Program-made: the position numbers and the translations under genes
Shown: in pieces, positions 18,045 through 60,685 of the stretch
Layout of the letters: each line of letters opens with the position of its first letter
Numbering within the stretch: the stretch's first letter is position 1
Notes under the pieces: model-generated
The model's input: only the letters and a program-made list of their open reading frames with translations
Database searches by the model: none
What the model was told of the DNA's origin: nothing
NCBI GenBank assembly: GCA_000091205.1
Contig: AP006491.2
Direction: 5' to 3' (one strand)
DNA length: 64,000 nt
Source: Cyanidioschyzon merolae
Lineage: Eukaryota

Positions 18045-18134
18045 ACGTCCAACCGAATCCGAGGAGCGTGCACCACCACCGGAAGGCGCACCAGTAGCGG
18101 TCTCGTTGCGCGTAGCACCAGCGGGGGTATCCCC

Positions 18135-20315
18135 ATGCGACTGGCGTTGGATGGGTGCACAGGCGCGTTCCAGCCACCGAAGAACAGCGGTCTCGTTACG
18201 TTCCTTCAAGCACGGTGCAATGCGTTCATACACTTCACGATGATAATGATTCAGCCAGGCGATCTCTTCATCAGACATCTGATCCAAGTCTAGTAAATCG
18301 GTGGATATCGGGACCATGGTCAAACGCTCAAACCCCAGAAACCGCTGACCACCAAAACTGCGCGCCGTCTCTACTGGTCGAACCACGAGCAGATTCTCAA
18401 TCCGAATACCAAATTCGCCATCCTCGTAGTAGCCGGGTTCGTTACTTAGAATCATGCCTGGTCGTAAGCCAACCGATGCAGCGTTCATTCTCGGAGAGAT
18501 GCTCTGCGGGCCTTCGTGGACGTTCAGCGCTGCCCCGACACCATGCCCCGTGCCGTGGCGATAATCCAGACCCAGACCCCATAGCGAGCGTCGAGCAAAG
18601 CTGTCCAGCAGTGTACCAGGGGTATTCTCTGGGAACACCGCCGTATCAATCGCAATATGGCCCCGCAGCACGCTCGTGTAGCAGCTCCGCACGTACGCGT
18701 CAGGTTTCCAAGTCGTGCGTTGTCCGCCGAGGAACAAAGTGCGCGTTACGTCCGTGGTACCGTCGACGTACTGGCCGCCAGAATCCAACAGGAGCACGCT
18801 ATTCGGCTCCCAGGTCCGACATTCATTCGGATCCGCGCGGTAGTGGATAATGGCGCCATTCGGACCGAGTCCCGCGATCGTATCGAATGAAGTGAATAGG
18901 AATCCTGATTCTTCGGCGCGAAACGCGGTGAGCCTCTCCGCGATGATGTGCTCATTCAATGCGCTGTACTTGGAGCTATCTTCACTGATCCGCTCCACCT
19001 CTGATTCCAGCCAGTGAAAGAACCGGCAAAGAGCGACTCCGTCACGAAGATGTGCCGCACGCATCCCAGCTAATTCCACGTCATTCTTGATCGCTTTCAT
19101 CAACGAGAGCGGTGTGGTATGCAGATACACTGCCTGAAGGCGACGTCGGAGGATCGCTGGATCCTCTTGAGCGGCAACGAAGCTATCCGCATCCAAGCCA
19201 GCGGCATGAAGCAGCATAGCCAACGAGACACTCGAAGGATCCATCCACAGGCGCTGCTTGCCTGGGCCGTAGTGTTCCCGTAGATACGATGCACACGCTT
19301 CATAGGGGCGCGTCTGAACCCCGTTCGCACGCAAATGTTCCTGGACGGCGACAGCGTTCGCCCCATCAAGTTTGGATGTGTCTACGAACAGTAGTGCGTC
19401 GCCCTCGCGGGGTACTAGGCCGTATGCCAGCACAACCGGACAATGTGGGATATCCTCCCCGCGAATGTTGAAAAGCCACGCAACCTCATCGAGCATGGAC
19501 ACGAAGACGCCGTCGACTCCTTCAGACATTTTTTGCCGGATTGCGGCAATTTTCTCCGCTGTAGATTGCCCAGCGTACTCCAGTGGATGAACTCGTACTG
19601 GGTTCGTCGGTAGCGACGGGCGCTTTGCTCCCCAGATCCGATCGACTGGGTGAGCCACAGCCTCCGGCAACGGCACAAGATGGATATCGAGTTCGAGCAC
19701 CCGGGAAACCCAGGCGTAGTGATGCACAAGCGGGTCGATGCCGACGCGATAGATACGACCAGCGCGTCTATGTTCACGGGAGCGTTCGGCGAGAAAATCT
19801 TCCAAAGTTGGCGTACCTGGCGTGCCCGTCTTCATGAGTCGCCAGCCCTCGGGCAGCTGCCGCTCAGCCTGAAGGAAGTACCGGCCATCCGTCCAAAGAT
19901 ACGCCTCCGCGTCGCTGCTGGTCACCAGGGCGGTCCCGGCGGAACCAGTGAAGCTCGTGAGGAACTCGCGTCGCGCATAGTGTGGCGGAGGATACTCCGA
20001 CTGATGCGGGTCTGCAGTTGGGACAATGAAAGCGTCGAGTGACTGTGAACGAAGCCAGCCTCGAACTGCCTCAACTTTGTCCGCAAGCGCAAAGACGTGG
20101 ACGTGTTTTCGATGTTGCCTTCGCGGTGTCTCTTCTTGGGGTCGATCTCGTACGAGCCTTTCCTGTCGCCTCGAACTTCGAAACCTGGTCCAGAGAAGCC
20201 GTCTGTTGCTTGGCGCTCCAGGAGCAAACGGCCGCCGCGTTACCAGACTGAGGCAACGACCGAGTTGTGGCTGCGACAGCCGTCCCGACGCCACGCTACC
20301 TGTGTGTAACCACAT
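18135..20315 (-). CDS. Xaa-Pro aminopeptidase (aminopeptidase P, M24B family) with ~75-aa Arg/Ser-rich N-terminal extension (possible mitochondrial presequence)
   Basis: AFIVPTADPHQSEYPPPHYARREFLTSFTGSAG...HGTGHGVGAALNVHEGPQ...EPGYYEDGEFGIRIENLLVV...WLNHYH, collinear with XPNPEP1/3. The ORF continues 3' without a stop into the cyclophilin-like region. The boundary at 18135 is set by homology only. Confidence 0.85.
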
Positions 20316-34202: not shown

Positions 34203-34373
34203 ATGGGCCACGCAGATATATGGAATAGCCATCCGAAGGATCATTGCAAGGGATCCCGTCGTTGTCGGGTGTGTAAGGCGCACCAGGGACTCATCCGCAA
34301 GTACGGACTGAACATGTGTCGACGCTGCTTCCGCGAGCACGCGAACAAGATCGGCTTCCAAAAGTATCGCTGA
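34203..34373 (+). CDS. RPS29: 40S ribosomal protein S29 (eS29), zinc-binding
   Basis: Not in the ORF table (56 aa): [56 protein letters not shown] with a C-x2-C...C-x2-C zinc knuckle and a TGA stop at 34371. AATAAA lies ~75 bp downstream. Confidence 0.93.
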
Positions 34374-34806: not shown

Positions 34807-37800
34807 TTATGCGCTGGTGCTGGTGCTGGTAGTGTTCACGAGCTGTTGCACGGATACTGCCGTCACCGTACCGTTCGGTGGAAATACAGACCTAACCATC
34901 CCAAAGACGAATAAGACACTCATGAGGTTCTCAACAGGTTTCGTGTTGTTTGGCAGTGTCAGTAGCTGAACAGCACCGGTGGTTGTCACATTAAGCGGAA
35001 CACGTAATGCGTATGGGATCGTTCCATTCGCACTTGCCGCTTGCGTGACATTCACGTCCTGGATACCTGTGATGTTGCGCACAGCCGATACGAAGCGATC
35101 ACGGAAGAGAGCGTTTCGGGTGGCGTTTGTAAAGTCCTCCACGGAGACGCCCTCCATCTGGAAGGCCACATTGATCGCTGCTTTGCCTGCTGGTGGTGAC
35201 GGGAAAGCGGCCAGGTTCGCCGGCCCCGGAACCGGGGATGCTGCCGGCGTTGGCGATGCTTCGCAGAGCAGACCCGAAAAGCCCGGCACACAGTAGCAAA
35301 CGCCATTGATGCAGGCACCATTACCGTTACAGCAGGTTGCGGTCGTCGCGTTCTCCGCCGTTATGCCCGCCGGTCGGCACGAGCTGACGCAAAGTGTTCC
35401 ATTCAAGTCGAATAGGCGACTTGGCTGTGCCAACGAGTACAGAGGAGGAAGCTCCGATGGTCTACCCAAAAAGTCCAGGGAGGTAATGTTCTTGGTAGGC
35501 GTGACCCGAACGGTGATATTCGGGCTCGATGCTGCCCTCGCGACACTGATGTACGTCTCCGTGGAGACGCTCGTGGTCGTCTCCAGCCGAGTATACTCGC
35601 TCGCAACAACCTGTCCAAATGAACCGGACTGCACTGTGCTTTGCAGCGTCGAGTAAACGGATAAGTACTCCACCACAGACGACATGACACGTACAGAGAT
35701 GCGATTGGCGTGCCAGCGCACACCAGTCGCGGAGCTTGACGAGCTCGTGTAGGTCACGAGGCCATTGCTCTGGGCCTGAACTCCATTGCAACTAGAAGGA
35801 GCGCTGCCGCCTGTGGAAGTCGAGAGACATTCGCAGTTGGTGATCTCGACCGCAGTGGGCACCAGACCACACGAGCTTGCTAATGTGTTCTGCACGATAT
35901 ACGAAATCTGGTCACACGTCCAAACGTTGATCTGCTCGACGACCTCGACGTCAATCTGCCATTCATACCAAACAATGCAGACAGGAGGCCGTTTGACGAC
36001 CACCTCGACCCATTTCACGGGAGCCGGAGCAACCGCAGATACGTATTCAGCGGTCGAGGTTACCAGCTGCGAGTACTGAACGATATCGGTATAGAGTTCG
36101 CCACCGCCACACTTGGACTGATACAGCTGAACACGTTGCCAAAAGTAGTTATTCACGAAGTTGTCACGAATTGCATACGTGTACTGGATCGTGTACGTGG
36201 AAAACGTCTCCAAGCGGATGTGGACGACTGCATTCCAGGTATCGATTTGCTCACACGAATGGATCGTTACGATTTCGCTCGGTATGCCAATATCGTTGCA
36301 CGAGTTCAGGATCGCCACTTTGACATCATTGCAGCTCAGAACCTGCGTACCAAAGAATGCAGATCGACAGTAAAACGCTGTCTCAATGAAGACTCGCCGC
36401 GGATAGATCTGTACTGGGACATAAATGATGCTGGTGCTCTGTTCCAGGACAACGGACGTTACTTGCTCGTATTCGACGGTGCTCACGGTGAGCGACGGCG
36501 AGATTACTGTCGTCGTCTCGCTAGCGCTGACATACAAACTCTGCAGATACACGTAAGCCTGGTACATCCGTTCTTGCCAGTTTGCCGGTGCATACTCGGG
36601 AACGATCGAGCAGGCAACGTAGATAGAGCACTCTGTCTCGATAGACAAATGCAAACTGCCCTTGCGTGGCTGGCTATAAAGCAGACTTTGGCTGCCATCA
36701 TCCTGCACCATGAGCAGAGGTTGTGCGGAACGCCGACTTGTGCCGGAGCCAGAGCTCGCCAGATTCACCACAACATCTGTCTCCGTGAAAGACTCGACAT
36801 CCAAAAAGGCATAGTAGTAGACGCGCTGTGCTGTGGATATAACTTCCGAGCAACTCGCACTCACGCCGACCGCGATCCGAATGGTCGGATTGTCTGGCAA
36901 GACTATCTTGTTGGTCGGAAGCGGACTACCATTCGGGAGCGCTGTGAGGTTGGGGGTTGGTGTTGGCGGAGGTACTGGCTTTCCCGCGCCGCTCGGCAGA
37001 TTAAGTGTAGTGATACTCGTGACAGAGAGTAAGCTCGCGAGTTTCACCTGCACAGTGCTGGCCTCTGAAACTGCCACGACCACAAAGACGGTGAATTGAA
37101 TATTCACTGCGACTGTAGTCGATGTGGTAACGCGCATCTTGGTAGAATCTCGATCCCCCATGAATTCCGAGAACCATCTCAGAGGAGCCAACAGTCCCAA
37201 ACGTGAGGAACTCGTTGAGGTCGGAGCAGCAGCACAGTTGTTCGAGACGGTAACATTGGATGCCGGCACGCCGAGAGCAGATGCAACTGCAGCGGCGATC
37301 GCTGACGCTGCAGACTGACAAACCTCTGCGGAGGTGACAGAAAGGTACGTGCCCTGAGATACTGTTGTAATAGCGGGTGTCGGTGGTGGCGTCGGTGCTG
37401 ATGTCGGAGTAAAGGTTGCCGACACGCTCGGGGACGTGCTCGGTGATACCGAGGTACTCGGTGAGCTCGTTGGCAAATGCGACGCACTTGGTGAAGGGCT
37501 CGGTGATACCGATGTACTCGGTGAGCTCGTTGGCAAATGCGACGCACTTGGTGAAGGGCTCGGTGATACCGAGGTACTCGGCGAGCTCGTTGGCAAATGC
37601 GACGCACTTGGTGAAGGGCTCGGTGATACCGAGGTACTCGGCGAGCTCGTTGGCAAATGCGACGCACTTGGTGAAGGTGTCAGTGGTTCCGAACTCGGAG
37701 ACGGTGCCGCGGTAACCGGCGAGCTTATGCTTGATGATGGATGCAATGTAATGCTCGGTGATGCGTGGAACGTTGCGCTGCTTCCAGCCGAGGCTGAACG

Positions 37801-38571
37801 AGAGGGGCTCAACGTCCCAGTCAGCACAGTCGATATCGATGGCGAAGGCACTACTGAGCTAAATCCAGTGCTTGTCGATGACGGCATTGGTGTCAAGGTT
37901 TCCGCGGCACCAGAACTCGGTGAAGGGCTTCCAATGCTCGAGGGTGATACGGCGTGAGTTGGTAGTGTGCTCCCTGGAATCGTTGTTGTCGACGACGGCG
38001 TTGGCACCACAGTTGGTGTCCCCGCAGACGCAGAGGCATGTGTCGATGTCGGTGTCAGCAATGATGTAGGTGTAGGTGAAGGCGTTGGAGTCGGCGTCGG
38101 CGTCGGTGTCGGTGTCGGTGTCAGCAACGGCGTAAGTGTAGGTGTAGGTGTAGGTGTAGGTGTAGGTGTAGGCGTTGGAGTCGGCGTCGGCGTCGGTGTC
38201 GGTGTCGGTGTCAGCAACGGCGTCGGTGTCGGTGTCGGTGTCAGCAACGGCGTCGGCGTCGGTGTCGGTGTCAGCAATGATGTAGGTGTAGGTGTAGGTG
38301 AAGGCGTTGGAGTCGGCGTCGGCGTCGGCGTCGGTGTCAGCAACGGCGTAGGTGTAGGTGTAGGTGTAGGTGAAGGCGTTGGAGTCGGCGTCGGCGTCGG
38401 TGTCGGTGTCGGTGTCAGCAACGGCGTCGGCGTCGGTGTCGGTGTCAGCAATGATGTAGGTGTAGGTGTAGGTGAAGGCGTTGGAGTCGGCGTCGGCGTC
38501 GGCGTCGGCGTCGGTGTCGGTGTCAGCAACGGCGTAGGTGTAGGTGTAGGTGTAGGTGAAGGCGTTGGAGT

Positions 38572-38608
<37 letters not shown>

Positions 38609-38856
38609 ACTGACACCGAGGGTAACGGTCTCACAACGTCCGGAACTTGGGGAAACTCCGTCTCCCCCTCAGCCTGGTGTGGCTCTGCGAGCACCAACAA
38701 TGACCCCCGCTCAGCTCTCCCTGTGTGCTTACCCCATAACTTCCAGTTGAGCGGTAAGCTGCCACCTAGCAAAAGGAGAATAAAAAACGTGAACAAAAAG
38801 TGACGGAGCGCAGCTTTTTGAAAAGCCGCCATCTCCGTTTTGCTATTAGTCTGCAA
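34807..38856 (-). CDS. Giant secreted mucin-like glycoprotein A: signal peptide, P/T/S-rich tandem repeats, ~900-aa Cys-containing conserved domain, one tenascin-type EGF-like module
   Basis: N-terminus [24 protein letters not shown] (signal), then PTPTPT.. and 20-aa [20 protein letters not shown] repeats. The central domain is paralogous to that of the 46017..50837 protein (e.g. [14 protein letters not shown].., [51 protein letters not shown]). The EGF-like module is [44 protein letters not shown]. No TM segment before the stop. Confidence 0.8.
37421..37690. repeat. 60-bp coding minisatellite (~4.3 units) inside mucin A, encoding 20-aa [20 protein letters not shown] repeats
   Basis: cggtgatacc gaggtactcg gtgagctcgt tggcaaatgc gacgcacttg gtgaagggct repeated at 37441, 37501, 37561 and 37621 with 1-2 substitutions. 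Confidence 0.9.
38040..38625. repeat. Hexamer-based (GGTGTC/GGCGTC/GGTGTA)n array with higher-order periodicity, encoding (PT)n / TPTP tracts of mucin A
   Basis: Seen directly: long runs of ggtgtcggtgtcggcgtc.. interrupted regularly by gtcagcaacggc / gtcagcaatgat. Confidence 0.85.
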
Positions 38857-40216
38857 TGCAATTGAAACTCAACGATATGAAATTCTACTTTTCCCAACGT
38901 CTTACAGCAGCAAACGCGTTGAAAGGGTTCCGGGTCAGCGGGACACGAGCACCACGGGTGTTCATGCAGACACGTGGAGCAGCCAAATCTGGATCGACGG
39001 GACACGTGTCCTGATCCGATCACGTATCGAGCGCCAGACACTGCGCCGCCCGCCAAACAACTGCGGTTTGCATTTCGTCGCTCGATACGCGACCTCGCCT
39101 GCAGAGGGTGTACGCGGAGCCTGGACCCGGTGTCCTCGGGGGCTGGTCATGTCTGTCTCTGACAATCTGGGGAGGACACAGAATTGCATACGTTATGTAT
39201 GGATTGAATAGGTGGATGGAAAAGTGCAGCTTACTTGGATAAAGAAGACTAGGAGAGGTTCGCGAAGCAACTTACCGGATAAACGATCACGTGAGTCTCA
39301 CATAGGAGAAGCATACATCAATACCTGTCAAAAGTCAGTTGCGTTGCATGGTCCAACGAAAAGCGTGTTTCACCTAGCGCCGTGTAAGTTCCTGGGAATT
39401 TAGAAGGAAAAATTATGATGGACCCAGAGATTCGGATGGTTGCGCTGCACGCGGCGCGCGCGGCTGATGTGTCTGCGTTGCAGCGAATGATCGGCGAGCG
39501 CTTCAGGGACACCTGATTTCTGCAGCCACGCAGCGGCCGAGGCGAGGACGAAAACAACAACGAATGACGATATTCTAAAGTGGAGTCACATCCCGGTGTA
39601 GTCGAAGCTGTCTCGAATATCTCGATTCAGGACATCTACCAGGCATCCATCGGCGCGGACAAGCAGATGCAGCGTTGTAGGGCAGCTACCTGTCATATCC
39701 TGTGCACGACCCCGCTGCCATCTGGTGACAACACGGAACCACTTGGCCGGGAGCTGAACATGAACTCTAGAATGATGGCTGTTCCCCAACGCCCATGGAT
39801 GCGTGCGCAGCATAGAACCACAGCGATGTTCAATTCGAGTGTTCAGGTCCTCTTGACCTGGAGAAAGAACGCTCCGTAAACAGGCATCTAAAGCTCCAAA
39901 GGACCCTTGAGCGCCACTTAAAGAACGCATGGGCTCTCGATTGGCGGTTTTCATCCCGACACATTGCTTGGACATGGAGGATTCGTTCTTCTTCCCGCTT
40001 TTGCACCAGTGCAACGCATGCGATGTCTGGCGATCACGAGCGCCTCCGCCGTATTGACGATCACGAAAATCACGATGAGCCACCGCCAAAGGAAGCTGCT
40101 TGCTTCCATATTCGCTGGAAAGCAAAATACTCCACCTGGAAGAACCGGACGATTCTGATTTCCTGAAAGATCGGTACCTCTGCGGAAGCATCTCAAGGTA
40201 ATCATAGACGCGGGTT

Positions 40217-40918
40217 TTATAGATCCACGTAACTATCGACCGGTTCGGCATTTCCACCACCGCAATCCCCACATTTTTTGACAAGACCAAAGCAGGCCCT
40301 CCCGCACATGCAGGTGCCTCGGAGTACAAGTAAAAATATGATCAAAATGAGAAGCAGAACCGCACCCACAGGAGCTACAATAAAGATGATTATCGAATCT
40401 CCCTGCGAGCCGGAGTTGGACGTACTTGGCACCTGCGGAGTCGGCGACACCGTGATCGACGCTAGAGCGAATGAAGTCATATGCAGGTTCGACACCGCTC
40501 TTGTGACCTGCGCCGACGCCGTCGCCGCATAGGACGCGGGAAAAGGCACCAGCGTTGGCAATTGCTCCGCTGTCGGTAGGGGTGAGGTTTCTGCGGGTGT
40601 TGGCGACGGCAACGACCGCGATGGCGAAGACTCCGCCGATGGCGACGGCGATGGCGATGGTTCCGTGTGCGCAAAGCGTCCGACCCCTGGGTACCTCTCT
40701 ATCAAAATCCCACCGTTTTCAGCGGGAACAGCGCGGAATGATGCGCGCGGTTCGAGACCTCTCATGAAAACCGCGACTTGCTCCGCGTTGTGAGACACGG
40801 CTGAAATCGACACTGGGACTGTCGGCTTCGTTGTTGTGGATAACAGTGACCTGCGACGCTGGTGCCTCGCAACGAGCCGCCGCGGCTGCCAAGCACTTTT
40901 CCGAAAGTGAGCACACAT
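40217..40918 (-). CDS. Possible small single-pass membrane protein with S/P-rich ectodomain and Cys-rich cytoplasmic tail
   Basis: 233-aa ORF: [29 protein letters not shown].., TM IIIFIVAPVGAVLLLILIIFLLVL, then RGTCMCGRACFGLVKKCGDCGGG. No clear signal peptide at the ORF start. No homology. Confidence 0.3.
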   Translation of the reverse strand: MCAHFRKSAWQPRRLVARHQRRRSLLSTTTKPTVPVSISAVSHNAEQVAVFMRGLEPRASFRAVPAENGGILIERYPGVGRFAHTEPSPSPSPSAESSPSRSLPSPTPAETSPLPTAEQLPTLVPFPASYAATASAQVTRAVSNLHMTSFALASITVSPTPQVPSTSNSGSQGDSIIIFIVAPVGAVLLLILIIFLLVLRGTCMCGRACFGLVKKCGDCGGGNAEPVDSYVDL

Positions 40919-42099
40919 ATCGTTTCAATATACGCAAGACCAAGACTTTTTCTCGTTCTAAAGGCGGTACTAGCCCAAAAAAGCTAAGGAAACACGATCC
41001 AAAAGAAGCGCTTCGCACAGCGCTATCCGGTGTGCAGCGAAGAAGATACAGCGCCCGCAGCGTGGTGTTGTGATCTTCGACGCAATGCACGTGCTCGTGA
41101 CATACAATTCAACGGGAGCTGACGCGCTGCGGCCCCAACGGAGCTGCCGCATCATCACGTCGCTGTGCGGTGCAATGTGACACCCTGTAACGCGGTGTGC
41201 AGGATTTCGACGCCCCCGCACAGCACCGTTGGCACGAACGCTACCGAGCGACGCTTCGTCGATTGCATCGACTTTCCATGGCACGTCGAAGCGCAGCTTT
41301 TAAATTGAGTCATTTAGGGATGATACGGATACGGACATTTCGATCTCGCATCGCCGTCGCGTGTCGATCCTGTATCTTGCATTCGACGCTGGCGCGATTG
41401 CTGACGGGAAGCCCGTTTGCCGTCAGTCGCGTGCTAGAAACGGCATTCTGCAGGCTTGATTGCCACATACCAGCGTGCACAGGTGATCAGCGCCTTTTCT
41501 GATGAAAACGTAAAGTTCGAGTACCTTGTCCAATGGTATCTTCTGTCTGGAGACGCCTGCGCTGAACCGCGTTGTGCCGAAGCGGTGCCCCGATATGCAG
41601 GCACACGCGACACGGCGGATACGTATTCGGGCCGGGCGAGGTCATCTCTTCCGTGATCTGGCGTCCGATGGACGAAAGTCCGCTTATCGCCGCCACGAGC
41701 GCTCGGAATCAACGGAGCGGAAGCAGCAGTTTGCGGAGACCGGCCAGCGGGCAACCCTAGTCCAATCTGCGTCTGTGATACGGCATGGTCGGTGTATCCG
41801 ATCAGCGCTTTGGGCTATGCATTTGCGGGATAGTCTTCAAAGCGCCGCTGTTGATGCCACAGCCCGAGTGTCCCCACTGAAGCGATTCGAAGGGAGGATT
41901 CTTCCGCTCTGGACAAGTTCAGTGCTCGCTGGGACGCTGTACAGATTATCTCCTCGGGTTTTATGAAAAAGAAGCACCAGCGTTCAAGTCTTTTAAAGAG
42001 TGCACCGCTCATGTGGACGATGTCCAGATTCTTGGTTGCAATTGCAACGGTACTGAAGACCAGCGGCTGTTGCACGCGAGCACGCACCTCTAGAGCAAA

Positions 42100-43480
42100 C
42101 AACGAATGAGGCGGTATGGACCGGCTCGACTGGAGAAAACTTTCCATCCTCCGTAACGCTGTCAGATTAAAATGATATACAGAACAAGTTGCTCTGTTCC
42201 TGCCATGACAATCTTTTCCGAGCTTTTTCCCAGATGTACCGCCTCCACATTCGAAGTGCAGCAATAGGGCTAGGGGATGCATACGTGGTATTTGGATTCT
42301 CGGTTGTCTTTTTTTCCGACTAGTTCCGTAGGTTCTTTCGTGCTGGAATTCGTTATGTCATCGGAATCGAGATGACTCGAGACGTCCTCGAACTAGCTTT
42401 CGTACCATGACGGACATCATTATCCTACGCATATGTAGACGTCTACACGCTTCTCCATTGCTCACCTGGAACATACGGAATTCACGTTTTCTTCGAGTCT
42501 TCGATCTTTCTGGACCAAGGCGAATTGTGGGCGCAGCGATTCTCGCTACCGGATTGACGAAGAAAAACACTTCACAACGTTTGTGGACGACTTGTTCACA
42601 TGCTCATGCCGAGTATTCGCTCAGCTTGACGCGTTACATAATCGATGAAGATCCAAAGAAAAATCCCCCCTCTTTGTATCCATCGACGAATCCACATTCA
42701 ACGACAGCATGAACCCTCACAGATGGTCTGCTTTCAGAGACGTCCATCTCTTCCGTTTCCACGGAAAAAGGGTCTCGGACTCGGACTTGAGCCATCATAG
42801 CGATCGCTTCCTGTGGATGGTGCGTCACCGCTGTACACGAAGGACCCGCGATCCAATCGAGATTTCTCAACGCGATCTCTAGCCTGGATGCTTCTTCGTT
42901 AATTGTTTCATCATAGACAAAATCGCGTTGCACATACTCCCTATCGAACGGAAGAGTGTACGCGAGCGTCTGCAGCGGACAGAGTACTCGTTGTGAGGAT
43001 TGCCCAGAAGACGCCGGTGATCTTTGCGTATGGCACAGGTCGTGTCAACGGAGGCGGGTATCGAGACGCGTCTCGCATATCCGTCAAGGGCATGTACCCA
43101 GCGATGAAGCACACCTGAACGCACCACTCGTCGACCCTCGGAGCAGGAAACGAAGTGGTGAACATACGGAAACACATGACCGCAGCCAGGTATCGCTGCT
43201 GCAAAAGGCCGCACCGAGGTCGTACACAAAACGGATGAAAATGACAAGCGAAGCGTCAATCGCAACTACCGTGTCTGCCTGAAAAGCGTCGACAACAGCC
43301 AGACGCAACGAAACCGGGACTCGAACGCTACCACCAACATCCGTCGACTGTAGATGCTGGAACCGAAGAGTGAGGAGACACCGACGCATGTAAAACCGGA
43401 TACAAGGAACATCAAAAGAAAGCAGTCGAAAAAAGCACCCAAATGCCAGTCTGGACGACAACGCGAATACACAGCAACAA
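42100..43480 (-). repeat. Copy 2 of the dispersed AT-rich repeat family (reverse orientation), with a tRNA/B-box-like segment near 42740-42810
   Basis: The reverse complement of 42747-42790 matches 2786-2830. 42195-42330 matches 62440-62530 and 3290-3400. 43250-43460 matches 2150-2400 at DNA level, with the same matches appearing in two different frames, so this is not coding conservation. Confidence 0.6.
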
Positions 43481-43829
43481 GAGCGTGTGTGCGCGAGTTG
43501 GACGACCTGCTCTTCTCTATTCTGGCATTGGTGTCATTTACGAATACCCGTCGCTTTTGTACATGAAAAACGGATGATTCGTGTACTTATGACTTCAATT
43601 CCCTAGTTGCCACCAGAGCAACGTCCATCAATGAACCCAGCGGGGAACGTCAACTTCCGAGCGCTTGTACCGCAACCTCCACGGTCGGCAGCACGATGTG
43701 CACGCGAGTCGATACGCGCTCCCAGTGCATACATTCAAGGACTCCATTGCATCAATGAACTACCGTACACGATCCGTACGCTTCGTGTGAACAAACCAGA
43801 CGCGTAATGAGTCCGGGCCTGTGTCAGCG

Positions 43830-46016
43830 TCAGCGCGTCACCGAGGTGCTGCGCGATCGCGAGCGCTTTCGCTGAGACAATACACTCAGTGCAGCAGCGG
43901 AACTCGAACGCACCAGCTTTGTACTCGAGGGCGGCAAGGCCCCTGGCATGCTTCCCTCGAGAGCGCCCTTGCCCGCGAGCATGTCCGACGCTGTAGGCAC
44001 GAGAGCTTCAATGAATGCACGAGCGTCGAGCATACAACTTCCACCAAAGAACACCTGCGTGCCGCTCGACTCCGAAAGATCATAGGCGTACCGCGTCTCA
44101 TTCCACGAGAGGCCGCCAATGACAAAGATAATGATGCGACGCGTCGCAGACTCGTCTACGCTGCCAACCGATGACGAAGAGGAACGTCGACGATTGCGAC
44201 GACCGAGAGACGACTCACGGATTGCCGACGACGAACGACGCCTGCGAAGACTTCGACTCGTGCGGCGAATACCGCTCTCCTCGTCATCGGTAGAGAAATC
44301 GGAGAGCTCACCGGCTGACGAGTCGTCGGACATGTACGCGCGATCGAAGTGGCGGCTCTCGCCGGCATACGGGAACGCGGACTCACCGAGGCGACGCTCG
44401 ATAAGCAATGTCGCAAGTTTCGCGAGCCGTCCATGGGTCTGTTGCATGGCTTGCATCTCCGATGGCGTCTTCCGCAACGGCACTCCGTAGGCGATGCACA
44501 AACGCTCAATGACAGCGGTCAGCTGCGGTGCAGTCCGGATATCCGATGCTGTGGTAGAGGTTCCAGTCGATGCACTCGACCCTGCCGAAGTACTCGAAAG
44601 CGCCGCCGATCCCTGTGACGATCCCCATGACTGGTGCTCCCCGAATGAAGAGCGAGCAAATGCCATCGAGACCAGCTCCTGAATCTCAGCTGTGCTCGTA
44701 TTCTGCGTGAGCGCAAACAATACAATCAGACGAGCTTTGTCCACCAGGCGAATATTGTCCTCGTCGAGCAATTGTCGCAGCTGTCCTCGGACACGCGTTT
44801 CAGCATCGGTACCGACGACACGCTGCGCATTGAGCATGTCTCGTTCGAGAGCAGCAATCCTGGCGATTTGCGCATTCTCCCAGAGATCCTGCGCGCGACG
44901 AGCCAGGCGCTGGTGACGCTCCAGTGACGCAGCGTCGGCATCGCTAGGCAGCAAAACGTTCGAGTCGGAGGTGCTCGTGGCGAGCGCGCCTCGTTTCGCG
45001 GTCCGGAGGCGCCCGACCTGCTCCACTGGGCGATAGCGCACGAGGCTCCAGACATCGTCAGCGTACTCATCGAGCACCAGCTGGGATCCAGCACCGCTAT
45101 CAGCCTCCAGCAACGAAGGGAATTCCTGCTTCAGCACCGTCTGATACGTATCATCGTGCAACAGGGGCGTCAACAGATCGCAGTCTCTGTCAACAATGAG
45201 GAGCACCGTCCGAGAAGCTCCAGCTCGAGGAGCGGATCCCGCTCTTGTCGGCAGAATGAGAGGACCGTACTCGTCGAGTATCCTGACGAGCTCCTCTGCG
45301 ACGGCTGCGGGTGCGCCCGTGAACGAGTCTCGCGCGAAACGGATACGCGGTCGCTCCTGCAGTACGGAGCACAGCGTCAACAAGGACTCGGCAATGGTTT
45401 GCGGCCGCACCGGCTGCAGATCCGCAGGATAACGGCCGAGATGAAACAGGCGCTGCTCGAATGCACAGAAATCGATGTTGAGTTCCGTGAACTGCGCAAG
45501 CCGTTCGACGAGCTGCGATGCCGCCCGAACTCGATCAAGATACGTTTCGTCGACGCGAGATGTCGCGAAAACTTCAATGATGGTCTTGCTGGAGACCTTG
45601 GGCGTCTCCGAGTCATCGTGTTCTCCGCTTCCTCTGTCAGACGCTTTGGTCACATGTTCAAGCGACGCAATCAGCGTATTCACCGCGTTCGACGTCGGCT
45701 TGAAGAGGTACACGAGACGCCGACCTTGGTCGCTTGGCGGCAACGCGTTGAGCGTTGGCGGCTGCTGACCAAGTTCCTCAACAAGGAACACACCATTGCC
45801 CACGAGGTCACTCATGCGGCACGCTGCAGACAATACCTGGATGCCGCGATCGTCTGCTACTAGCATTCCGGGAGCGCGACGCTGATCAGCGGAGCTGCCG
45901 CGGGAGTCTTCCGCACCGGCAAGCGACGACCTTGCTGTGCCCGCCAGCATGCCGTACAGCAGGCGCTCTCGCGCGAGTTCGCGCAGTGTGGCGTTCGGGC
46001 CCACAACCAGAGGCAT
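43830..46016 (-). CDS. Sec1/Munc18 (SM) family vesicle-fusion regulator, complete
   Basis: [24 protein letters not shown].. aligns to the Munc18 N-terminus (MAPIGLKAVVGEKIM). Conserved blocks: [14 protein letters not shown], the SM signature [23 protein letters not shown], and the C-terminal [22 protein letters not shown]...[18 protein letters not shown]. The ATG at 46016 was verified on the sequence. It is in frame with, and not separated by a stop from, the upstream mucin-like ORF. Confidence 0.88.
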
Positions 46017-49000
46017 GGTAACCACATTGGCGCTGTCGACTGTGCCCAGTGCGGCAGCTGTGCTGCCAGTTGGTCTCAACGCTGCCACATCAACGGTATC
46101 GTTCTGGGAGACTCGGGATCCGGGAGCTATTCCCGCGAGTGCCGCTGACGACGGCACTGTGCCTGTTCGGTTGCGCTGGCGTTGCTGTCGACGTCGCCTT
46201 CGCCGCAAGAAAAGCCATACAGCCAACACGGCGAGAATCAGGGCAGCAGCACCGGCCACAGCGCCTCCAATGATTGCCCCCAGAGGTGCACCCGAGCCAG
46301 ATCCGCTGCCGGAAATCTGAGAGGGGTCACCTGTGGCGACACGTCGCACCTCCACTGATACCACGGATCCATTTGGAGGGAACGCCTGTCGAACTTGCTC
46401 ATAGAGGAACACAGTGCTTAGCAGACGGGTGACCACATTCACATCGCTCGGTTTCAGGATCAACTGTACGGCGCCGGTAGTGGTGACACTCGTCGGTGCC
46501 CGCATCAACATGTAATGCAGGGAATTATAGGACTCGCTGCCGCCGACCACGTGAATGCGTACCAACGAGATCTGCGCAATGGACTGGATGCTTTGCATCA
46601 GCAAATCGCGGAAGCGGGCGTTGTTGGTGCTGTTGTAGAACTGACTATACGACACGCCACGCAATTCCATCAAGAGATCCACGGCATCGTAGCCCGAAGG
46701 AGGCGGCGGAAAGCTCGGTAACGCCAAACTGGATGGCGAAGGCGACGCAGACGCTGTCGACGACGACGACGACGATGATGATGAAGGCGCATTCTGGCAC
46801 AGCAAACCTCGATAGCCACCAACGCAGTAGCAGACGCCACTGACGCATACCCCGTTTCCACTGCAGCAGTTTGCCGGCGAGACGTCCGAATCGTTGATGC
46901 CAGGCGGCCGGCACGAAGCGGTGCATATCCTTCCACTGAGATCATACAATCGCCCGGGCTGGACGACGGAATAGAGCGGCTCCAATGTCGACGGTTTGCC
47001 CAAAAAGTCCAACGAGACTAGACTCCGGTTCTGGGAAATCTGAATGCTCACATTTCCATTCGTACTGGAATTGTGATGGCTACGCTGATGACGAAGCTCA
47101 CGAAGCTTCCTCGCAAAGGTGTTCTTGATGTGTGCCGAGTGGTACGCAGTGGTCATATTTTGGCTCACATTCTGTGCCTGGAAAGCATTCGTCAGCACTC
47201 GACCGGAAACACGATTGTAGTGCCATTGCACTGCGCCAGCTGACGTGTTCGTACCGGCAGGTGTTGGGCTCGCGGTTGGCATCGGCGTCTCTGTACCTGA
47301 CCGCACAGGTGCTGATGTTACCGTCTCTGGAGGCGACGCGGTTGCACTCGCAACAATGGCGTTCGCTGTCGGGGTGACAAGCACCGCAGATGGCGTCGGC
47401 GCAACGCTTGAACTGAGCGGCAAGACTGTGCTCGTGGGAGTTGTCGTCGACATTGGTGCCGACTCGAAAATGACCTCTCCGCTGCTGGTCGTGGTGAAAC
47501 CGCTGCAGCTCGCCGGAACGCTACCCTGTCCATTGACCGCGATACACTCACAATTCTCGATGACAATTTCGGAGACGAAGACGCCGCAAACCTCGGCGAG
47601 CGTCTGCTGCATCACATACGCAACCTCAGAACACGTCCAGTACTCGACGACGTCCAGTGCCTGACAGTAGTATTCCCATTCGATCCAGACGCCGCCAACT
47701 GCAGGCCGCTCGGTCACGACTTCAACCCATTTCACTGGCGTTGGCGTTGGCGTTGGCGTTGGCGTTGCGGATGGAGCGGCGTAGCTGCTGGTACCGATCA
47801 CGTCGATGTACGAGTATTGCACGATATCGGTGTAAAACTCGACGCTGCCACAACTGGTTTCGTAGGTATTCACCTGCTCAAAGTAGTAGCCATTCTGGAT
47901 ATTGTCTCGCAAGGCGGCAGTGAACCCGGAAGCATACGTCGAGTACGTATCGATTTGGAGGTGCACCACCACGTCCCATTCGTTGACCTGCTCGCAGGAG
48001 CGAATCGTCACCACCTCGGACGGGATTCCGATATTGTCGCAACTGTTCAATATCGCTGTCTGCATCGAGTTACAGCTTAGTCGAACGGAGCCGGGCGACG
48101 CCGAGCCGCAGTACAAGGAGGTCCGAAGGTAGACACGACGAGGATAGACGGGCACCGGCTCGTAGACAAGATTGTCGCTGTTTCCAAGCAACGCCTCCAC
48201 GACACTCTCCTGCTGGGTGTACGTCAGCGAAGTGACGCTTTCAGAGTTCAGCGTCGTCAACGTCACTGTTGTTGATGTTTCGGCTTGCATAATGATCTCG
48301 CTCTGTAGCGTGTATGCTGCTTGATAGTTGCGCTGTTGCCAGTTTGCCGGGGCGTACCTGGGGTAGACTGCGCACGCTACGCTGAATGTATAGGTCGTAG
48401 AATAGCTGAGACGAAGAGCACCCTTACGTGAGCGCCGCCAACTTGTCAAACCGCGTAACCCGTTTTGAACGAGATCGGACGGCGGTGCACCCGCTCGCAT
48501 CACTTGAGACGAAGAGCACGGGCTCAGAGAAACATCCTCCAACGTGAAATCGGGAATGTCCGCGAATGCGTTGTAGTATGCCGTTTTCGCCGCGGCTTGA
48601 ATCGCCTCGCAGGAAATGTTTGCGTTTCCGGGAATCTGTATCGTGGGCTGGTCAGCAAATACAAGTTTTTGCTGAGGGATCGGGCTACCATTCGGAAGCG
48701 TGTTCAGTAGCGGGGTCGGTGTGGGAGGTGGCGACGGAGGTCCGACTCCTTGTGCGAGGCGCTGATGACGCAACGAGGTCGAGCTCAGCAGCTTGTTGAG
48801 TTCTTGCTGAGCTTGACTCGCATTAGATACGGGTACTGTTGCGAAAACAGTAAATTGCACAAGGCCACCGGCCCCAGAGCTCGTCTGACGGAACAGCGTC
48901 GTAAGGAATGGTAAATCGAACGACGCACCCGCTGGGAGAAAGCGCTGGATGCGTTCCTGTAGCAGTACTTCTCGATTCAGCGGCAAGCCTGAAGAGAAGC

Positions 49001-50837
49001 ATCCATCGGACACGGTGACAGCACTCGGCGATATGCCCAAGGCGGATGCAACTGACGCAGACAGAGCAAGCGATGCGGACGAGCATGAAGCCTCAGTTCG
49101 AACAGAGAGGAAGGCGCGCCCAACAATGGACGTCGTAGCGGGTGTTGGTGATGTTGACGGTGCAGGCGTGCTTGTCGCGTTGCTCACAACAGGCGTCGAT
49201 GATACAGAAGGCGACGGTGCAGGCGTGCTTGTCGCGTTGCTCACAACAGGCGTCGATGATACAGATGGCGACGGTGCAGGCGTGCTTGTCGTGTTGCTCA
49301 CAACAGGCGTCGATGATACAGATGGTAGAGGCGTAGGCGTGCTTGTCGCATTGCTCACAACAGGCGTCGATGATACAGAAGGCGACGGTGCAGGCGTGCT
49401 TGTCGTGTTGCTCACAGCAGGCGTCGATGATACAGATGGTAGAGGCGTAGGCGTGCTTGTCGCGTTGCTCACAACAGGCGTCGATGATACAGATGGCGAC
49501 GGTGCAGGCGTGCTTGTCGTGTTGCTCACAACAGGCGTCGATGATACAGAAGGCGACGGTGCAGGCGTGCTTGTCGCGTTGCTCACAACAGGCGTCGATG
49601 ATACAGAAGGCGACGGTGCAGGCGTGCTTGTCGCGTTGCTCACAACAGGCGTCGATGATACAGAAGGCGACGGTGCAGGCGTGCTTGTCGCGTTGCTCAC
49701 AACAGGCGTCGATGATACAGATGGTAGAGGCGTAGGCGTGGGCGTGGGCGTGGGCGTCGGTGTTGGCGTAGGTGTCGGTGTTGGCGTAGGTGTCGGTGTT
49801 GGCGTAGGCGTCGGTGTCGGCGTAGGTGTCGGCGTAGGTGTCGGCGTAGGTGTCGGCGTAGGTGTCGGCGTAGGTGTCGGCGTAGGTGTCGGCGTAGGTG
49901 TCGGTGTCGGCGTAGGTGTCGGTGTCGGCGTAGGTGTCGGTGTTGGCGTAGGAGTAGGCGTAGGTGTCGGTGTTGGCGTAGGAGTAGGCGTAGGCGTCGG
50001 TGTTGGCGTTGGCGTTGGCGTTGCCCGACGGGTAGACGTCATTGCCGGTGTTGAAGAGGCAAGCGAATCTACAAGGCTGTTTCCATGAATGTAACTATCT
50101 CGCGGCCGAGACGTCGGTGTCGCAGAGCCTGTCCCTGAACTCGTTAAACTTGGTGTGAAAATCGCACTCCCACTGTTTGAGCTAATTCCCGTTCCTGTGG
50201 ATGATGCAGAAGCGGAACTAGTCGCGGTATTCACGCCGAAGCTGGGCGATGGTTGCAAAATAGGCTGAACAGTAGGTCCTGTTGTGTGCTGCGTATTCGG
50301 TGATGGTGATGGAGTTGGTGTAGGAGACGGTAACGGTGTCGGTGTAGGCGTCGGTGTAGGTGTAGGTGTAGGTGTAGGTGTAGGCGACCTCATAGGTGTT
50401 GGCGTCAGCGCTACCGTGGGTGTGCTCAGCGCCGGTGTCGAGACGGGACCGGGCGTCGAACTAGTTATGCTGGTTGGTGGCCCAGACACCGCTGAAACCC
50501 CAGAGTCCGTCGAGGTGCCACTCCCGCCTGTCGACGCAGCAGTGCTCGTCCCTGTAGATGTAGGTCCCGTGAAGCTGGTGCCACTACTGCTACTGTCAGT
50601 GAGGCCACCAGGCCCAGAGTTACGCCCGCCCAAAGCAGGACGCAGCATCTCGAACCAGTCGCGTTCCTCGAGTGACACATGGTCACTTTGCGAGGGTGCC
50701 TGTCGCGGACCCGCCGCGCTTGCGCAAGCCCGAATCGGTCCCCAAACTAGCGAAAGCAATAATAATAAAGATAGAACAAGAAAAATTAACGTTCCATATC
50801 TTGATCCTCTCATCGTGCGTAAAGTGCCTTCATTCAT
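46017..50837 (-). CDS. Giant mucin-like type I membrane glycoprotein B (paralog of 34807..38856): signal peptide, S/T/P repeats, conserved ~900-aa Cys-containing domain, EGF-like module, TM helix and polybasic stop-transfer
   Basis: [25 protein letters not shown] (signal). (TP)n tracts and 19-aa [19 protein letters not shown] repeats. The core is paralogous to mucin A. The EGF-like module is [69 protein letters not shown] is followed by [13 protein letters not shown]. The 3' boundary is undefined: no in-frame stop before the Sec1 ATG at 46016. Confidence 0.75.
49140..49740. repeat. 57-bp coding minisatellite (~10.5 units) inside mucin B, encoding 19-aa [13 protein letters not shown](A/T)TSTPA repeats
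   Basis: gatgatacaga(a/t)ggcgacggtgcaggcgtgcttgtcg(c/t)gttgctcacaacaggcgtc recurs with period 57 (starts at 49198, 49255, 49312 ...). Confidence 0.9.
49741..50040. repeat. Hexamer (GGCGTG/GGTGTC/GGCGTA)n array encoding (TP)n of mucin B; begins with the G-quadruplex-type run (GGGCGT)4
   Basis: ggcgtgggcgtgggcgtgggcgtcggtgttggcgtaggtgtcgg... seen directly. A further short array lies at 50290-50400. Confidence 0.85.
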
Positions 50838-58579: not shown

Positions 58580-60685
58580 ATGCGGCGGGCGAACTCTTGT
58601 TCAGTTCTGACAGAGAAAGACGAACCGAGCCACTGGAAAGCGCCGGCTCTGTCCCCGCTTCAGCATATGCCCCTCGGAGTGGCGTTCTGCGAGCGCCAGA
58701 CGGGCGTTCTTCGGAGTCAGGATAGTGCAACGGTTCGGGCGTTATTAGCCGACACTGTCCTTGGAACAAAGGTGACGAGCCAGCCAAAGTTTATGATGCC
58801 TGGCATGGCATCGGCGGATCCCAGCGCTGGGTCCAAAAAGCTCGCGCAGCTGGGTGATGAGGGTTTTGCGCGCTCCAGAAGCGCTTCGAGTGAGGAGCTT
58901 TCAAGAAGTGATAGCGGCGAGGAGAATGAGTTGGCGGTTCCAAACATGGATGATAACTGTTCCACCAGTGCCGTGGTACGGCGCGCTCGCGAGTTCGCAC
59001 AGAAAAAGCATCTGACACTCGATGAAATCTACCGTATCATCGAGCTTTTGTTCCGACACGCAGGTCTTGGCGATTCGAGTTCACCGGATGAGGTCGTGGA
59101 AGCACTCGGAGAGGATGGTCTCGAGCTTTTGCTTCGCTTTTATACCAGTGCGACGGAATACTACCTTAAGCAGCGTATTGAATCGGGACTGGGACGCTCG
59201 GAGCGCCTGAAAAGGGCGATGAGAGAATGGGAGGTTCATCTGCATGAAGAGGACAGCACAGAGAACGTTTCTGATAAGGAAATCGGGCAGACAGTAGGGA
59301 AACATGGAATCGATATCCCCCAGGAAAGAGCCTTTACCGAGCAGTCAGAAAAGATTCCCTCTCTGGAAGGGCTTCATCAGGAAGTCACAGAGCCGCATGC
59401 GAAACGACAGCGCACTGAGTCTGAAGGCATGTCGGCGTGCAGCTCGGGAGAGTCCTCCGAGGAACTTGATCCTCCAATGACCCTGAAGTACAAAGCCGAC
59501 ACCGAGATCGCCGTCTCGCGCATTTTCGCCTTGGGTTCGGTGGTGCCACCTCGAAATCCGCTCATCAAGCCAGACGATCCGTATGATGGACCTCCTGTGG
59601 TGACCATGACTGGATTCGGAGAACTTGGTCGCTGGGGAAACCAAATTCTGCAGTACGCCTTCCTGCGCATTTACGCGAGCAAATGCAACGCGGGTATTCA
59701 AGTCCCGGACTGGGTGGGTAAGGCCATTTTCGGTCTCAAGGATCAACCAGTCGAGCGTGCATTTCCCGCTGTGGTTGAATATGCTGAAGCAAAGGCCAAC
59801 TCTACCTTTACCTCGCAATTTCTGGACTACATTCGAGCATCGAACGCCGGCGCACCAGTCCCCGAGGTGAAAGAGTCAGACCTGGCGCCCAGCGTGGAGC
59901 CGCGTTTCGTGAATCGCGACTTTTGGGGCTGGTTCCAGTGGCACACGAGTGTCTATCGTCCGTACCGTGAGCTGCTTCGCCAGACTTTCACAGTGGTTCC
60001 GGAACTTGCCGCACATCTAGACAATGTGATTGCACGCACGTTACGTAAGACTGGCAGACGCGGCCCTGTGACGCTTGTAGGCCTACATCTTCGCCTCGGA
60101 GACTACAAGAACATTGCCGCTTCATCCTTCGGATACTGCGCCCCGACCGCGTGGTACCTCGAGTGGCTTGAGCAAATATGGCCGACGCTCTCAAATCCGG
60201 TGCTTTTCGTAGCCTCCGACGATATCGATGCAGTGCTTCGGGATTTCCGCGAGTTCAACCCGGTCACCTGCGATATGCTCGGTATCGAAATGCCACCCGC
60301 CTGGCAGGGTCTAGGTGCTGGTTTTTTCCCCGACTGGTATGTTTTGACCCAGTGCGACGTGTTGGCGATCAGCAACTCCACCTTCAGCTTCACTGCTTGT
60401 ATGTTCAACCAACGAGACGGAAGCGCAGTCGGCGGGAGGCCTCGCTTCTATCGCGCGCACTACAGCCAGCGCATGATCCCCTTCGACCCGTGGGACGCTG
60501 AACCCATCCTCCATCGCCCGGGCGGGACCTGGGACACCTTACAGCTTCTGTACCAGACACAAGGAACACGAGGGCTAGTTCGCAACGTCCTCTACGAACT
60601 ACCGTACTACCGGCTGCGGGACGTGATCATAAGGACAGTACTGCGAGCGCGAGCTCTCCGGAAGCGAGTGACGGCAAGTGCCTGA
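58580..60685 (+). CDS. GT11-family (alpha-1,2-fucosyltransferase-like) glycosyltransferase domain protein with ~300-aa acidic/Ser-rich N-terminal extension and no obvious TM
   Basis: C-terminal 400 aa carry the GT11 motifs in order: TMTGFGELGRWGNQILQYAF (GRFGNQMGQYA-like), LVGLHLRLGDYKN (HVRRGDY-like), FVASDD, DWYVLTQCDVLAISNSTFSFTACMF ([22 protein letters not shown]-like). The start codon is uncertain (ORF Met at 58580; alternative MMPGMAS ~58790). Confidence 0.7.
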   Translation: MRRANSCSVLTEKDEPSHWKAPALSPLQHMPLGVAFCERQTGVLRSQDSATVRALLADTVLGTKVTSQPKFMMPGMASADPSAGSKKLAQLGDEGFARSRSASSEELSRSDSGEENELAVPNMDDNCSTSAVVRRAREFAQKKHLTLDEIYRIIELLFRHAGLGDSSSPDEVVEALGEDGLELLLRFYTSATEYYLKQRIESGLGRSERLKRAMREWEVHLHEEDSTENVSDKEIGQTVGKHGIDIPQERAFTEQSEKIPSLEGLHQEVTEPHAKRQRTESEGMSACSSGESSEELDPPMTLKYKADTEIAVSRIFALGSVVPPRNPLIKPDDPYDGPPVVTMTGFGELGRWGNQILQYAFLRIYASKCNAGIQVPDWVGKAIFGLKDQPVERAFPAVVEYAEAKANSTFTSQFLDYIRASNAGAPVPEVKESDLAPSVEPRFVNRDFWGWFQWHTSVYRPYRELLRQTFTVVPELAAHLDNVIARTLRKTGRRGPVTLVGLHLRLGDYKNIAASSFGYCAPTAWYLEWLEQIWPTLSNPVLFVASDDIDAVLRDFREFNPVTCDMLGIEMPPAWQGLGAGFFPDWYVLTQCDVLAISNSTFSFTACMFNQRDGSAVGGRPRFYRAHYSQRMIPFDPWDAEPILHRPGGTWDTLQLLYQTQGTRGLVRNVLYELPYYRLRDVIIRTVLRARALRKRVTASA

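Follow-up and report, generated by a model that had tools for sequence, protein, structure and literature searches.

A tandem pair of glycoprotein genes

The window considered here, meaning the whole stretch of 64,000 nucleotides that was analysed (contig AP006491.2, one strand, 5' to 3'), belongs to a cyanidiophycean red alga similar to Cyanidioschyzon and Cyanidiococcus, and not to a stramenopile as an earlier note on the same DNA had implied. The genomes of these algae are almost intron-free. On its minus strand the window carries two neighbouring genes for large glycoproteins, designated A and B, of which B continues beyond its membrane helix into a Sec1/Munc18 (SM) domain. The open reading frame (ORF) of A occupies 34807..38856 (1349 codons, with an ATG at 38832) and that of B occupies 43830..50837 (2335 codons).

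34807..38832, minus strand: gene A, predicted secreted mucin-like glycoprotein of 1341 amino acids (aa) from the ATG (ORF; A-type relatives; synteny with CMI068C; no transmembrane helix)
43830..50837, minus strand: gene B, probable type-I membrane glycoprotein with an SM domain, 2335 aa (ORF; colinear relatives; synteny with CMI070C)

The pair lies between a ribosomal S29 gene at 34203-34373, which adjoins A as it does in Cyanidioschyzon (Cz.) merolae, and an alternative oxidase (AOX) gene at 52382-53533, which neighbours B as CMI072C does in Cz. merolae. The order S29, A, B, AOX agrees with CMI067C, CMI068C, (CMX064C), CMI070C and CMI072C in the supplementary tables of PMC13353863, a 2026 Plant Cell study that is cited throughout from passages of its text and from those tables. 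By synteny, A is the counterpart of Cz. merolae CMI068C and B that of CMI070C. Deposited orthologs are named "hypothetical protein" (CMI068C type) or "syntaxin-binding protein" (CMI070C type), CMI070C itself being "similar to syntaxin binding protein", and several of the deposited relative models begin at an internal Met, leaving out the signal peptide and the mucin region. Gene order and architecture in Cz. merolae and in the Cyanidiococcus and Cyanidium orthologs are as in A and B; the window represents a different lineage, ~79% identical to such relatives in A and 65-68% in B. Relatives of A found with the core query are 51-80% identical to it, besides one metagenome protein that is 100% identical; they include Cyanidiococcus yangmingshanensis KAK4532317.1, a member of an A-relative cluster (80%), one further relative present in NCBI and JGI (79%), and another on a GC-rich (65%) contig (51%). 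JGI contig Ga0078972_1001600 is ~99% identical to the window.

A and B are paralogs. BLASTP with a low-complexity filter aligns residues 578-1329 of A with residues 652-1490 of B at 37.6% identity over 848 columns (E 2.5e-131), and in a MAFFT alignment the cores are 41% identical. The collinearity of the tandem copies reported in the earlier note therefore holds over ~840 shared residues, with its estimate that roughly half of the positions are identical reduced to 38-41%. The note had also asked whether one copy might be an assembly duplicate, which is ruled out because A and B are only ~40% identical. A tandem A and B pair is also present in Cyanidiococcus (contig L002) and on a Cyanidium-like contig (L001), so the duplication is older than the split of these lineages. 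The seven A- and B-type sequences compared, which represent four lineages, have 21 invariant Cys columns and a further one that is almost invariant. The Cyanidium-like B ectodomain (L001, 3327..8345) is 44% identical to A-type proteins and 45-51% to other B-type proteins, while the Cyanidium-like A protein groups clearly with other A proteins (53%); this pattern could stem from gene conversion within the tandem pair or from unequal rates.

The Sec1/Munc18 domain in the reading frame of B

The features that determine the predicted topology of the two proteins and the cytosolic part of B are as follows.

38731..38832, minus strand: N-terminal signal-peptide-like hydrophobic segment of A (translation)
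50715..50837, minus strand: predicted signal peptide of B (hydrophobic 19-mer peak of 2.63, residues 12-39)
46206..46283, minus strand: transmembrane helix of B, residues 1519-1544 (hydrophobicity 2.64; kept in all B-type sequences)
46167..46205, minus strand: polybasic stop-transfer segment of B including RRRRRR (sequence; positive-inside rule)
46002..46166, minus strand: cytosolic linker of B, ~55 aa, with conserved DTVDVAALR, in frame and without a stop (protein and DNA alignments)
44007..46001, minus strand: complete SM domain of B (Pfam PF00995)
44154..44327, minus strand: insert in the SM domain of B, acidic and then Ser/Arg-rich (many invariant columns in four lineages)

The view that B is membrane-anchored and A is not is upheld: B has one transmembrane helix followed by RRRRRR, whereas A has no transmembrane helix and ends right after its last ectodomain module, as do A orthologs in three other lineages. 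Because the polybasic stretch follows the helix, the positive-inside rule places the C-terminus of B in the cytosol. The cytoplasmic tail attributed to B in the earlier note does follow the helix, but it is a tail of ~790 aa that holds a complete SM domain. PF00995 matches B residues 1659-2277 with 170.7 bits (cut-off 30.7; E 9.9e-50) over model positions 3-574 of 575. Among PDB sequences the SM domain of B matches Munc18-1/STXBP1 (E 1e-22), squid Sec1 (1e-19) and Munc18-2 (2e-17); Vps45 matches its C-terminal stretch only (1e-5), and neither Sly1 nor Vps33 is matched. On the basis of these matches the domain appears to be of the exocytic (Munc18/Sec1) type. It is 50-70% identical among the four B-type sequences (alignment A5).

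Like the exocytic SM proteins Munc18-1/STXBP1, yeast Sec1 and Arabidopsis KEULE/SEC11, the C-terminal ~720 aa of B fit the full Sec1 model, and the presumed activity of B is likewise the chaperoning or templating of plasma-membrane SNAREs. The known exocytic SM proteins are soluble or peripheral, however, a property typical of SM proteins that B lacks: a signal peptide, an ectodomain, a transmembrane helix and a stop-transfer segment precede the SM domain in one ORF, so that the domain is joined to a membrane helix and to a ~1500-aa ectodomain predicted to be glycosylated. B differs from them also in its conserved acidic and Ser/Arg-rich insert and its basic C-terminal tail. The insert is almost invariant although the lineages are 50-70% identical overall, and the basic tail is similarly conserved; the RRxS-type motifs of the insert suggest a phospho-regulated loop.

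Ectodomain, transmembrane helix, linker and SM domain are colinear and stop-free in the window, in contig L006, in Cyanidiococcus L002, in Cyanidium-like L001 and in an NCBI protein of 1702 aa (P0048) that bears the source name "syntaxin-binding protein 1" and combines core, transmembrane helix and SM domain as in B. The Cyanidiococcus B gene is annotated as one gene of 2384 aa, and Cyanidium-like B is an ORF of 2276 codons. Nevertheless, two points favour reading B as two genes, one for a transmembrane mucin-like glycoprotein and one for a soluble SM protein, or as a gene whose SM part is made from an internal promoter or start: SM proteins are established to be normally soluble, and the window, Cyanidiococcus and P0048 each have an in-frame Met shortly before the conserved SM N-terminus. 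An independent gene upstream would have to end in a stop codon, however, and none is present in four diverged lineages. In the Cyanidium-like sequence a Val takes the place of this Met, the sole one between the transmembrane helix and the conserved N-terminal helix of the SM domain, and no other Met precedes that helix there. The linker also argues for continuous translation: it carries a conserved motif (DTVDVAALR / DVIDLDALR), its indels keep the frame, and in DNA alignments of three species frame 0 has 0 stops and the other frames have 1-3 each. Gene models of Cyanidiophyceae likewise list a signal peptide, one transmembrane helix and an SM domain in a single gene (supplementary tables of PMC13353863). 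A division of B into two products is accordingly considered quite improbable. Because the SM domain stands in frame after a transmembrane helix and a polybasic stop-transfer segment, B is very probably a genuine type-I membrane-anchored SM protein.

The searchable literature holds no description of a natural transmembrane-anchored SM protein, engineered constructs being the only examples, and neither the fusion in B nor the shared ectodomain is described in the text passages of PMC13353863. The identifiers of these genes are absent from the main texts of the searchable literature, and the signal-peptide and transmembrane flags of SM genes appear in supplementary tables only. The genes themselves have already been deposited and tabulated; what is new relative to the searchable literature is the fused architecture.

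Ectodomains, repeats and neighbouring genes

The ectodomain core shared by A and B comprises the Cys-containing modules D1 to D5, an EGF-like module and D6, and is located as follows.

34837..37347, minus strand: ectodomain core of A (D1-D5, EGF-like, D6), ~840 aa (alignment with B and orthologs)
46338..49115, minus strand: ectodomain core of B (D1-D5, EGF-like, D6) with B-specific PT/S-rich inserts (alignment with A and orthologs)
35263..35394, minus strand: 8-Cys EGF-like module of A (sub-threshold Pfam EGF_Teneurin / EGF_2; invariant Cys)
46797..46928, minus strand: EGF-like module of B (sub-threshold Pfam; invariant Cys)
34837..35181, minus strand: C-terminal module D6 of A, with the stop directly after it (alignment)
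46338..46691, minus strand: juxtamembrane module D6 of B, predicted ferredoxin-like alpha/beta sandwich

All 8 Cys of the EGF-like module are invariant in the seven sequences, and A and B fit the signature C-x-C-x2-G-[FYW]-x4-8-C, the PROSITE-type EGF pattern. Sub-threshold EGF-type Pfam matches occur in all five core members scanned (best E 2e-4), and none of the EGF models (EGF_Teneurin, EGF_2, EGF_TEN) exceeds its gathering score, the best for A being 17-18 bits against cut-offs of 22-65. A sequence profile search of the PDB with the core returned EGF matches alone, at E>0.1. Beyond these sub-threshold EGF matches, no family in Pfam or the PDB matches the shared core, in agreement with the earlier claim that it is unrecognised.

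The further claim of a lineage-restricted family is supported by an exhaustive HMMER search of 1.84 billion representative proteins with the profile of the core, and the statement of distribution rests on this search. It gave three real matches, namely the clusters of A and of B and a fragment of B type (P0020); 13 further, weak matches are confined to the EGF positions, and nothing among the matches is attributable to Galdieria. In this analysis modules D1-D5 occur only in sequences of Cyanidioschyzon, Cyanidiococcus and Cyanidium-like algae. A scan of metagenome loci with the SM alignment returned same-species contigs only and was used for repeat numbers, not for distribution.

The core had been described as a single domain of ~900 aa. 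An AlphaFold2 model of the 855-aa core, built from five sequences, has a mean predicted local distance difference test (pLDDT) score of 42, and because of this low confidence it was read for secondary structure only and not used in a fold search. Its secondary structure suggests that the core consists of about six beta-alpha-beta...beta-alpha modules and the EGF-like module rather than one domain. Comparison of the modules with hhalign as an internal-repeat test gave weak, non-significant matches (P 0.008-0.08), which are located at a "C-helix-G[IV]P..V.I..C" motif that recurs in D1-D4; homology among the modules is not claimed.

A separate AlphaFold2 model of D6 (B sequence, with A D6 as an alignment row; pLDDT 58) predicts a beta-alpha-beta-beta-alpha-beta arrangement beside the membrane, and a Foldseek comparison with the PDB returned generic ferredoxin-like matches only. 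The animal transmembrane mucins (MUC1, MUC13, MUC16 and similar) combine Pro/Thr/Ser tandem repeats, SEA and EGF modules, a transmembrane helix and a cytoplasmic tail. No SEA match at E<=10 in Pfam was obtained for any of the five members scanned. The conserved D6 motif FPPNG[ST]V[VT].V was considered as a SEA-type autoproteolysis site, in which G|SVVV would lie in a beta2-beta3 hairpin, and this assignment of FPPNG[ST]VV was rejected on the predicted topology, which places the motif between alpha2 and the last strand.

Between the signal peptide and the core both proteins have a long Pro/Thr/Ser-rich tandem-repeat region of mucin-like character, with these three residues making up 77% of A residues 70-494 and 73% of B residues 75-572. 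Repeats were located with Tandem Repeats Finder (TRF).

38040..38604, minus strand: (PT)n / PTPLLTPT arrays of A, mucin-like region (TRF periods 6/72/78/108; composition)
37438..37677, minus strand: unit of 60 bp / 20 aa in A, x4.0, 98% match (TRF)
49156..49721, minus strand: unit of 57 bp / 19 aa in B, x9.9, 93% match, with an N-x-T sequon in each (TRF; sequon positions)
49729..50384, minus strand: (PT)n arrays and S/T/G-rich mucin-like region of B (TRF; composition), the arrays being at 49729-50021 and 50317-50384 (TRF)

The distinct arrays named in the earlier note, with 60-bp units in A, 57-bp units in B and PT hexamers, are thus confirmed. Compared with the 99%-identical contig L005, A has 4 versus 3 copies of the 20-aa unit and differs by 70 aa of PT array and by 4 substitutions elsewhere. 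Compared with L006 (~99% identical), B has 10 versus 9 copies of the 19-aa unit, small changes in the PT arrays and 11 substitutions. These copy numbers are compared with short-read metagenome contigs, in which repeats may be collapsed. The units are near-identical within one gene and different between orthologs, and for this reason the independent, recent expansion or homogenisation of repeats proposed earlier fits; the variation in copy number between near-identical strains is in line with it. The otherwise flat GC-skew profile has local peaks of 0.15 (38001..40000) and 0.20 (48001..50000) that coincide with the PT-repeat arrays and are compositional rather than a replication signal, because the ACN and CCN codons of minus-strand arrays enrich the plus strand in G.

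The 5-kb spacer between A and B contains an ORF of 233 aa (40217..40918, minus strand) with a Ser/Pro-rich stretch, one transmembrane helix (IIIFIVAPVGAVLLLILIIFLLVL) and a Cys-rich cytosolic tail (CMCGRACFGLVKKCGDCGGG). It agrees in position and in its single transmembrane helix with Cz. merolae CMX064C, an equation that is positional only; CMX064C is ~500-fold enriched in diploids in the tables of PMC13353863. The ORF has no Pfam match, and neither it nor the spacer shows tblastx or tblastn similarity in the Cyanidiococcus or Cyanidium-like loci. At ~8 kb from the glycoprotein genes, an ORF of 701 aa (58580..60685, plus strand) encodes a glycosyltransferase family 11 (fucosyltransferase-type) domain (E 2.8e-8). 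In an ORF of 1084 aa (17061..20315, minus strand) a complete Xaa-Pro aminopeptidase (Creatinase_N, Creatinase_N_2, Peptidase_M24, Peptidase_M24_C) is followed by a cyclophilin peptidyl-prolyl isomerase domain at the C-terminus; this pairing of a proline-specific peptidase with a prolyl isomerase also occurs in the last gene of L001 (20798..22502). No tRNA or Rfam features were found in the 64-kb window.

A possible link between cell wall and exocytosis

In Cyanidioschyzon, Cyanidiococcus and Cyanidium the diploids are cell-walled and the haploids wall-less (PMC13353863), and the wall is 50-55% protein according to older work cited there. In the RNA-seq data of the same study both Cz. merolae genes are diploid-specific; the log2 fold changes (2n/n) are 3.8 for CMI068C and 5.06 for CMI070C, and 8.4 and 5.96 for their orthologs in Cyanidium (Cd.) caldarium (supplementary tables). 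For Cd. caldarium these tables record a SignalP signal peptide in the A ortholog, and a signal peptide and one transmembrane helix in the B ortholog. According to PMC13353863 there are 10 SM genes per genome, and 8 in Galdieria, several of them diploid-biased; SYP1 paralogs are phase-specific and include a diploid-specific one, and a contribution of SM proteins to building the nascent wall is suggested. Cz. merolae keeps only one exocyst subunit (PMC1810245).

Among the SM ("SEC") genes tabulated in PMC13353863, Galdieria partita g718, g1423 and g1424 and Cd. caldarium g912 carry signal-peptide and/or transmembrane flags, and most are diploid-biased; one of them is a second CMI070C-like gene in Cd. 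caldarium. From these tables, membrane-anchored SM proteins may represent a class-wide expansion.

We propose that A and B are glycoproteins of the wall or matrix and that B couples wall assembly to SNARE-driven exocytosis, an overall explanation to which we assign a probability of roughly 0.6. Both would form part of, or organise, the cell wall or matrix of the diploid, which is largely proteinaceous, and B would reside in the plasma membrane while its ectodomain reaches into the wall. On the cytosolic side the SM domain of B would act in cis on the plasma-membrane Qa-SNARE (SYP1), and this action would concentrate secretory-vesicle fusion where the wall is being assembled, in a cell from which most of the exocyst is missing. 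A may in turn engage the ectodomain of B, as its soluble partner or as a building block. The earlier suggestion of a lineage-specific adhesion family is recast in this way: a pair of putative cell-surface glycoproteins stands, and B would be physically coupled through its SM domain to the exocytic fusion machinery. A more specific version, in which a wall or matrix glycoprotein carrying its own SNARE chaperone on its tail lets the assembly site directly set the site of vesicle fusion, partly replacing the missing exocyst in a trafficking system that is among the most reduced in eukaryotes, with secreted A as its partner and with the flagged SM paralogs of Galdieria as variants bearing other ectodomains, is put forward tentatively and is more doubtful than the general proposal.

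The fungal wall-integrity sensors Wsc1 and Mid2 are type-I proteins with a glycosylated Ser/Thr-rich stalk that extends into the wall and a cytosolic tail that recruits intracellular machinery. B would resemble them in both respects, but the sensors are much smaller, are unrelated in sequence, and recruit a Rho-GEF rather than a SNARE chaperone.

A function of A and B in cell-cell adhesion or in mating or zygote recognition, with the SM domain serving signalling or scaffolding instead of fusion, would suit the combination of mucin stalk, EGF-like module and Cys-rich modules, which is typical of adhesion architecture, and also the repeats, which evolve fast and vary between strains as is common in recognition proteins. 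Expression of the A and B orthologs is specific to a life-cycle phase, which speaks for such a function, but that phase is the proliferating diploid and not the haploid gamete (PMC13353863). Save for mating, these unicells have no known stage of cell-cell adhesion. Retention of the SM domain over its full length (50-70% identity in four B-type sequences; Pfam 3-574 of 575) also argues against this reading, and we regard the adhesion or mating function as unlikely.

The single remaining exocyst subunit could also be taken to favour a different arrangement, in which B is a cargo-borne tether on secretory vesicles whose SM domain captures plasma-membrane syntaxin in trans and so replaces the exocyst. 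Every type-I membrane protein of the secretory pathway travels in vesicles before it reaches the surface, and the linker gives the SM domain some reach. At steady state, however, a type-I surface protein would mostly be in the plasma membrane. An engineered transmembrane-anchored Munc18c fragment boosts fusion on the t-SNARE membrane only (PMC9547204); in that reconstitution the anchored fragment has no activity when placed on the v-SNARE membrane and works only in cis with t-SNAREs. Tethering in trans therefore seems rather improbable, and action of B in cis at the plasma membrane is preferred.

Several points weigh against the proposed coupling of wall and exocytosis. The diploid-specific expression data come from related species and not from the organism of the window, and orthology to CMI068C and CMI070C is founded on synteny and naming. 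The intact full-length fusion polypeptide is predicted from ORFs, and an internal transcription start may yield a soluble SM protein besides the fusion. The fold of the ectodomain is taken from low-confidence models (pLDDT 42 for the whole core and 58 for D6). If the fusion is processed or its parts are separately expressed, an ordinary lineage-specific glycoprotein pair remains.

SM proteins are universal, essential partners of SNAREs, and their recruitment to the right membrane and place is a central question of membrane trafficking. A natural transmembrane-anchored Munc18-type protein with a wall glycoprotein at its other end would be an experiment of nature on SM recruitment, in a genetically tractable host with a minimal endomembrane system of ~16 SNAREs and almost no exocyst, and with a controllable switch between walled diploid and wall-less haploid. 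The analysis also defines a lineage-specific multi-module ectodomain that is absent from domain databases, and it offers A and B as two abundant diploid-specific candidates for constituents of the poorly known, largely proteinaceous wall of the Cyanidiophyceae.

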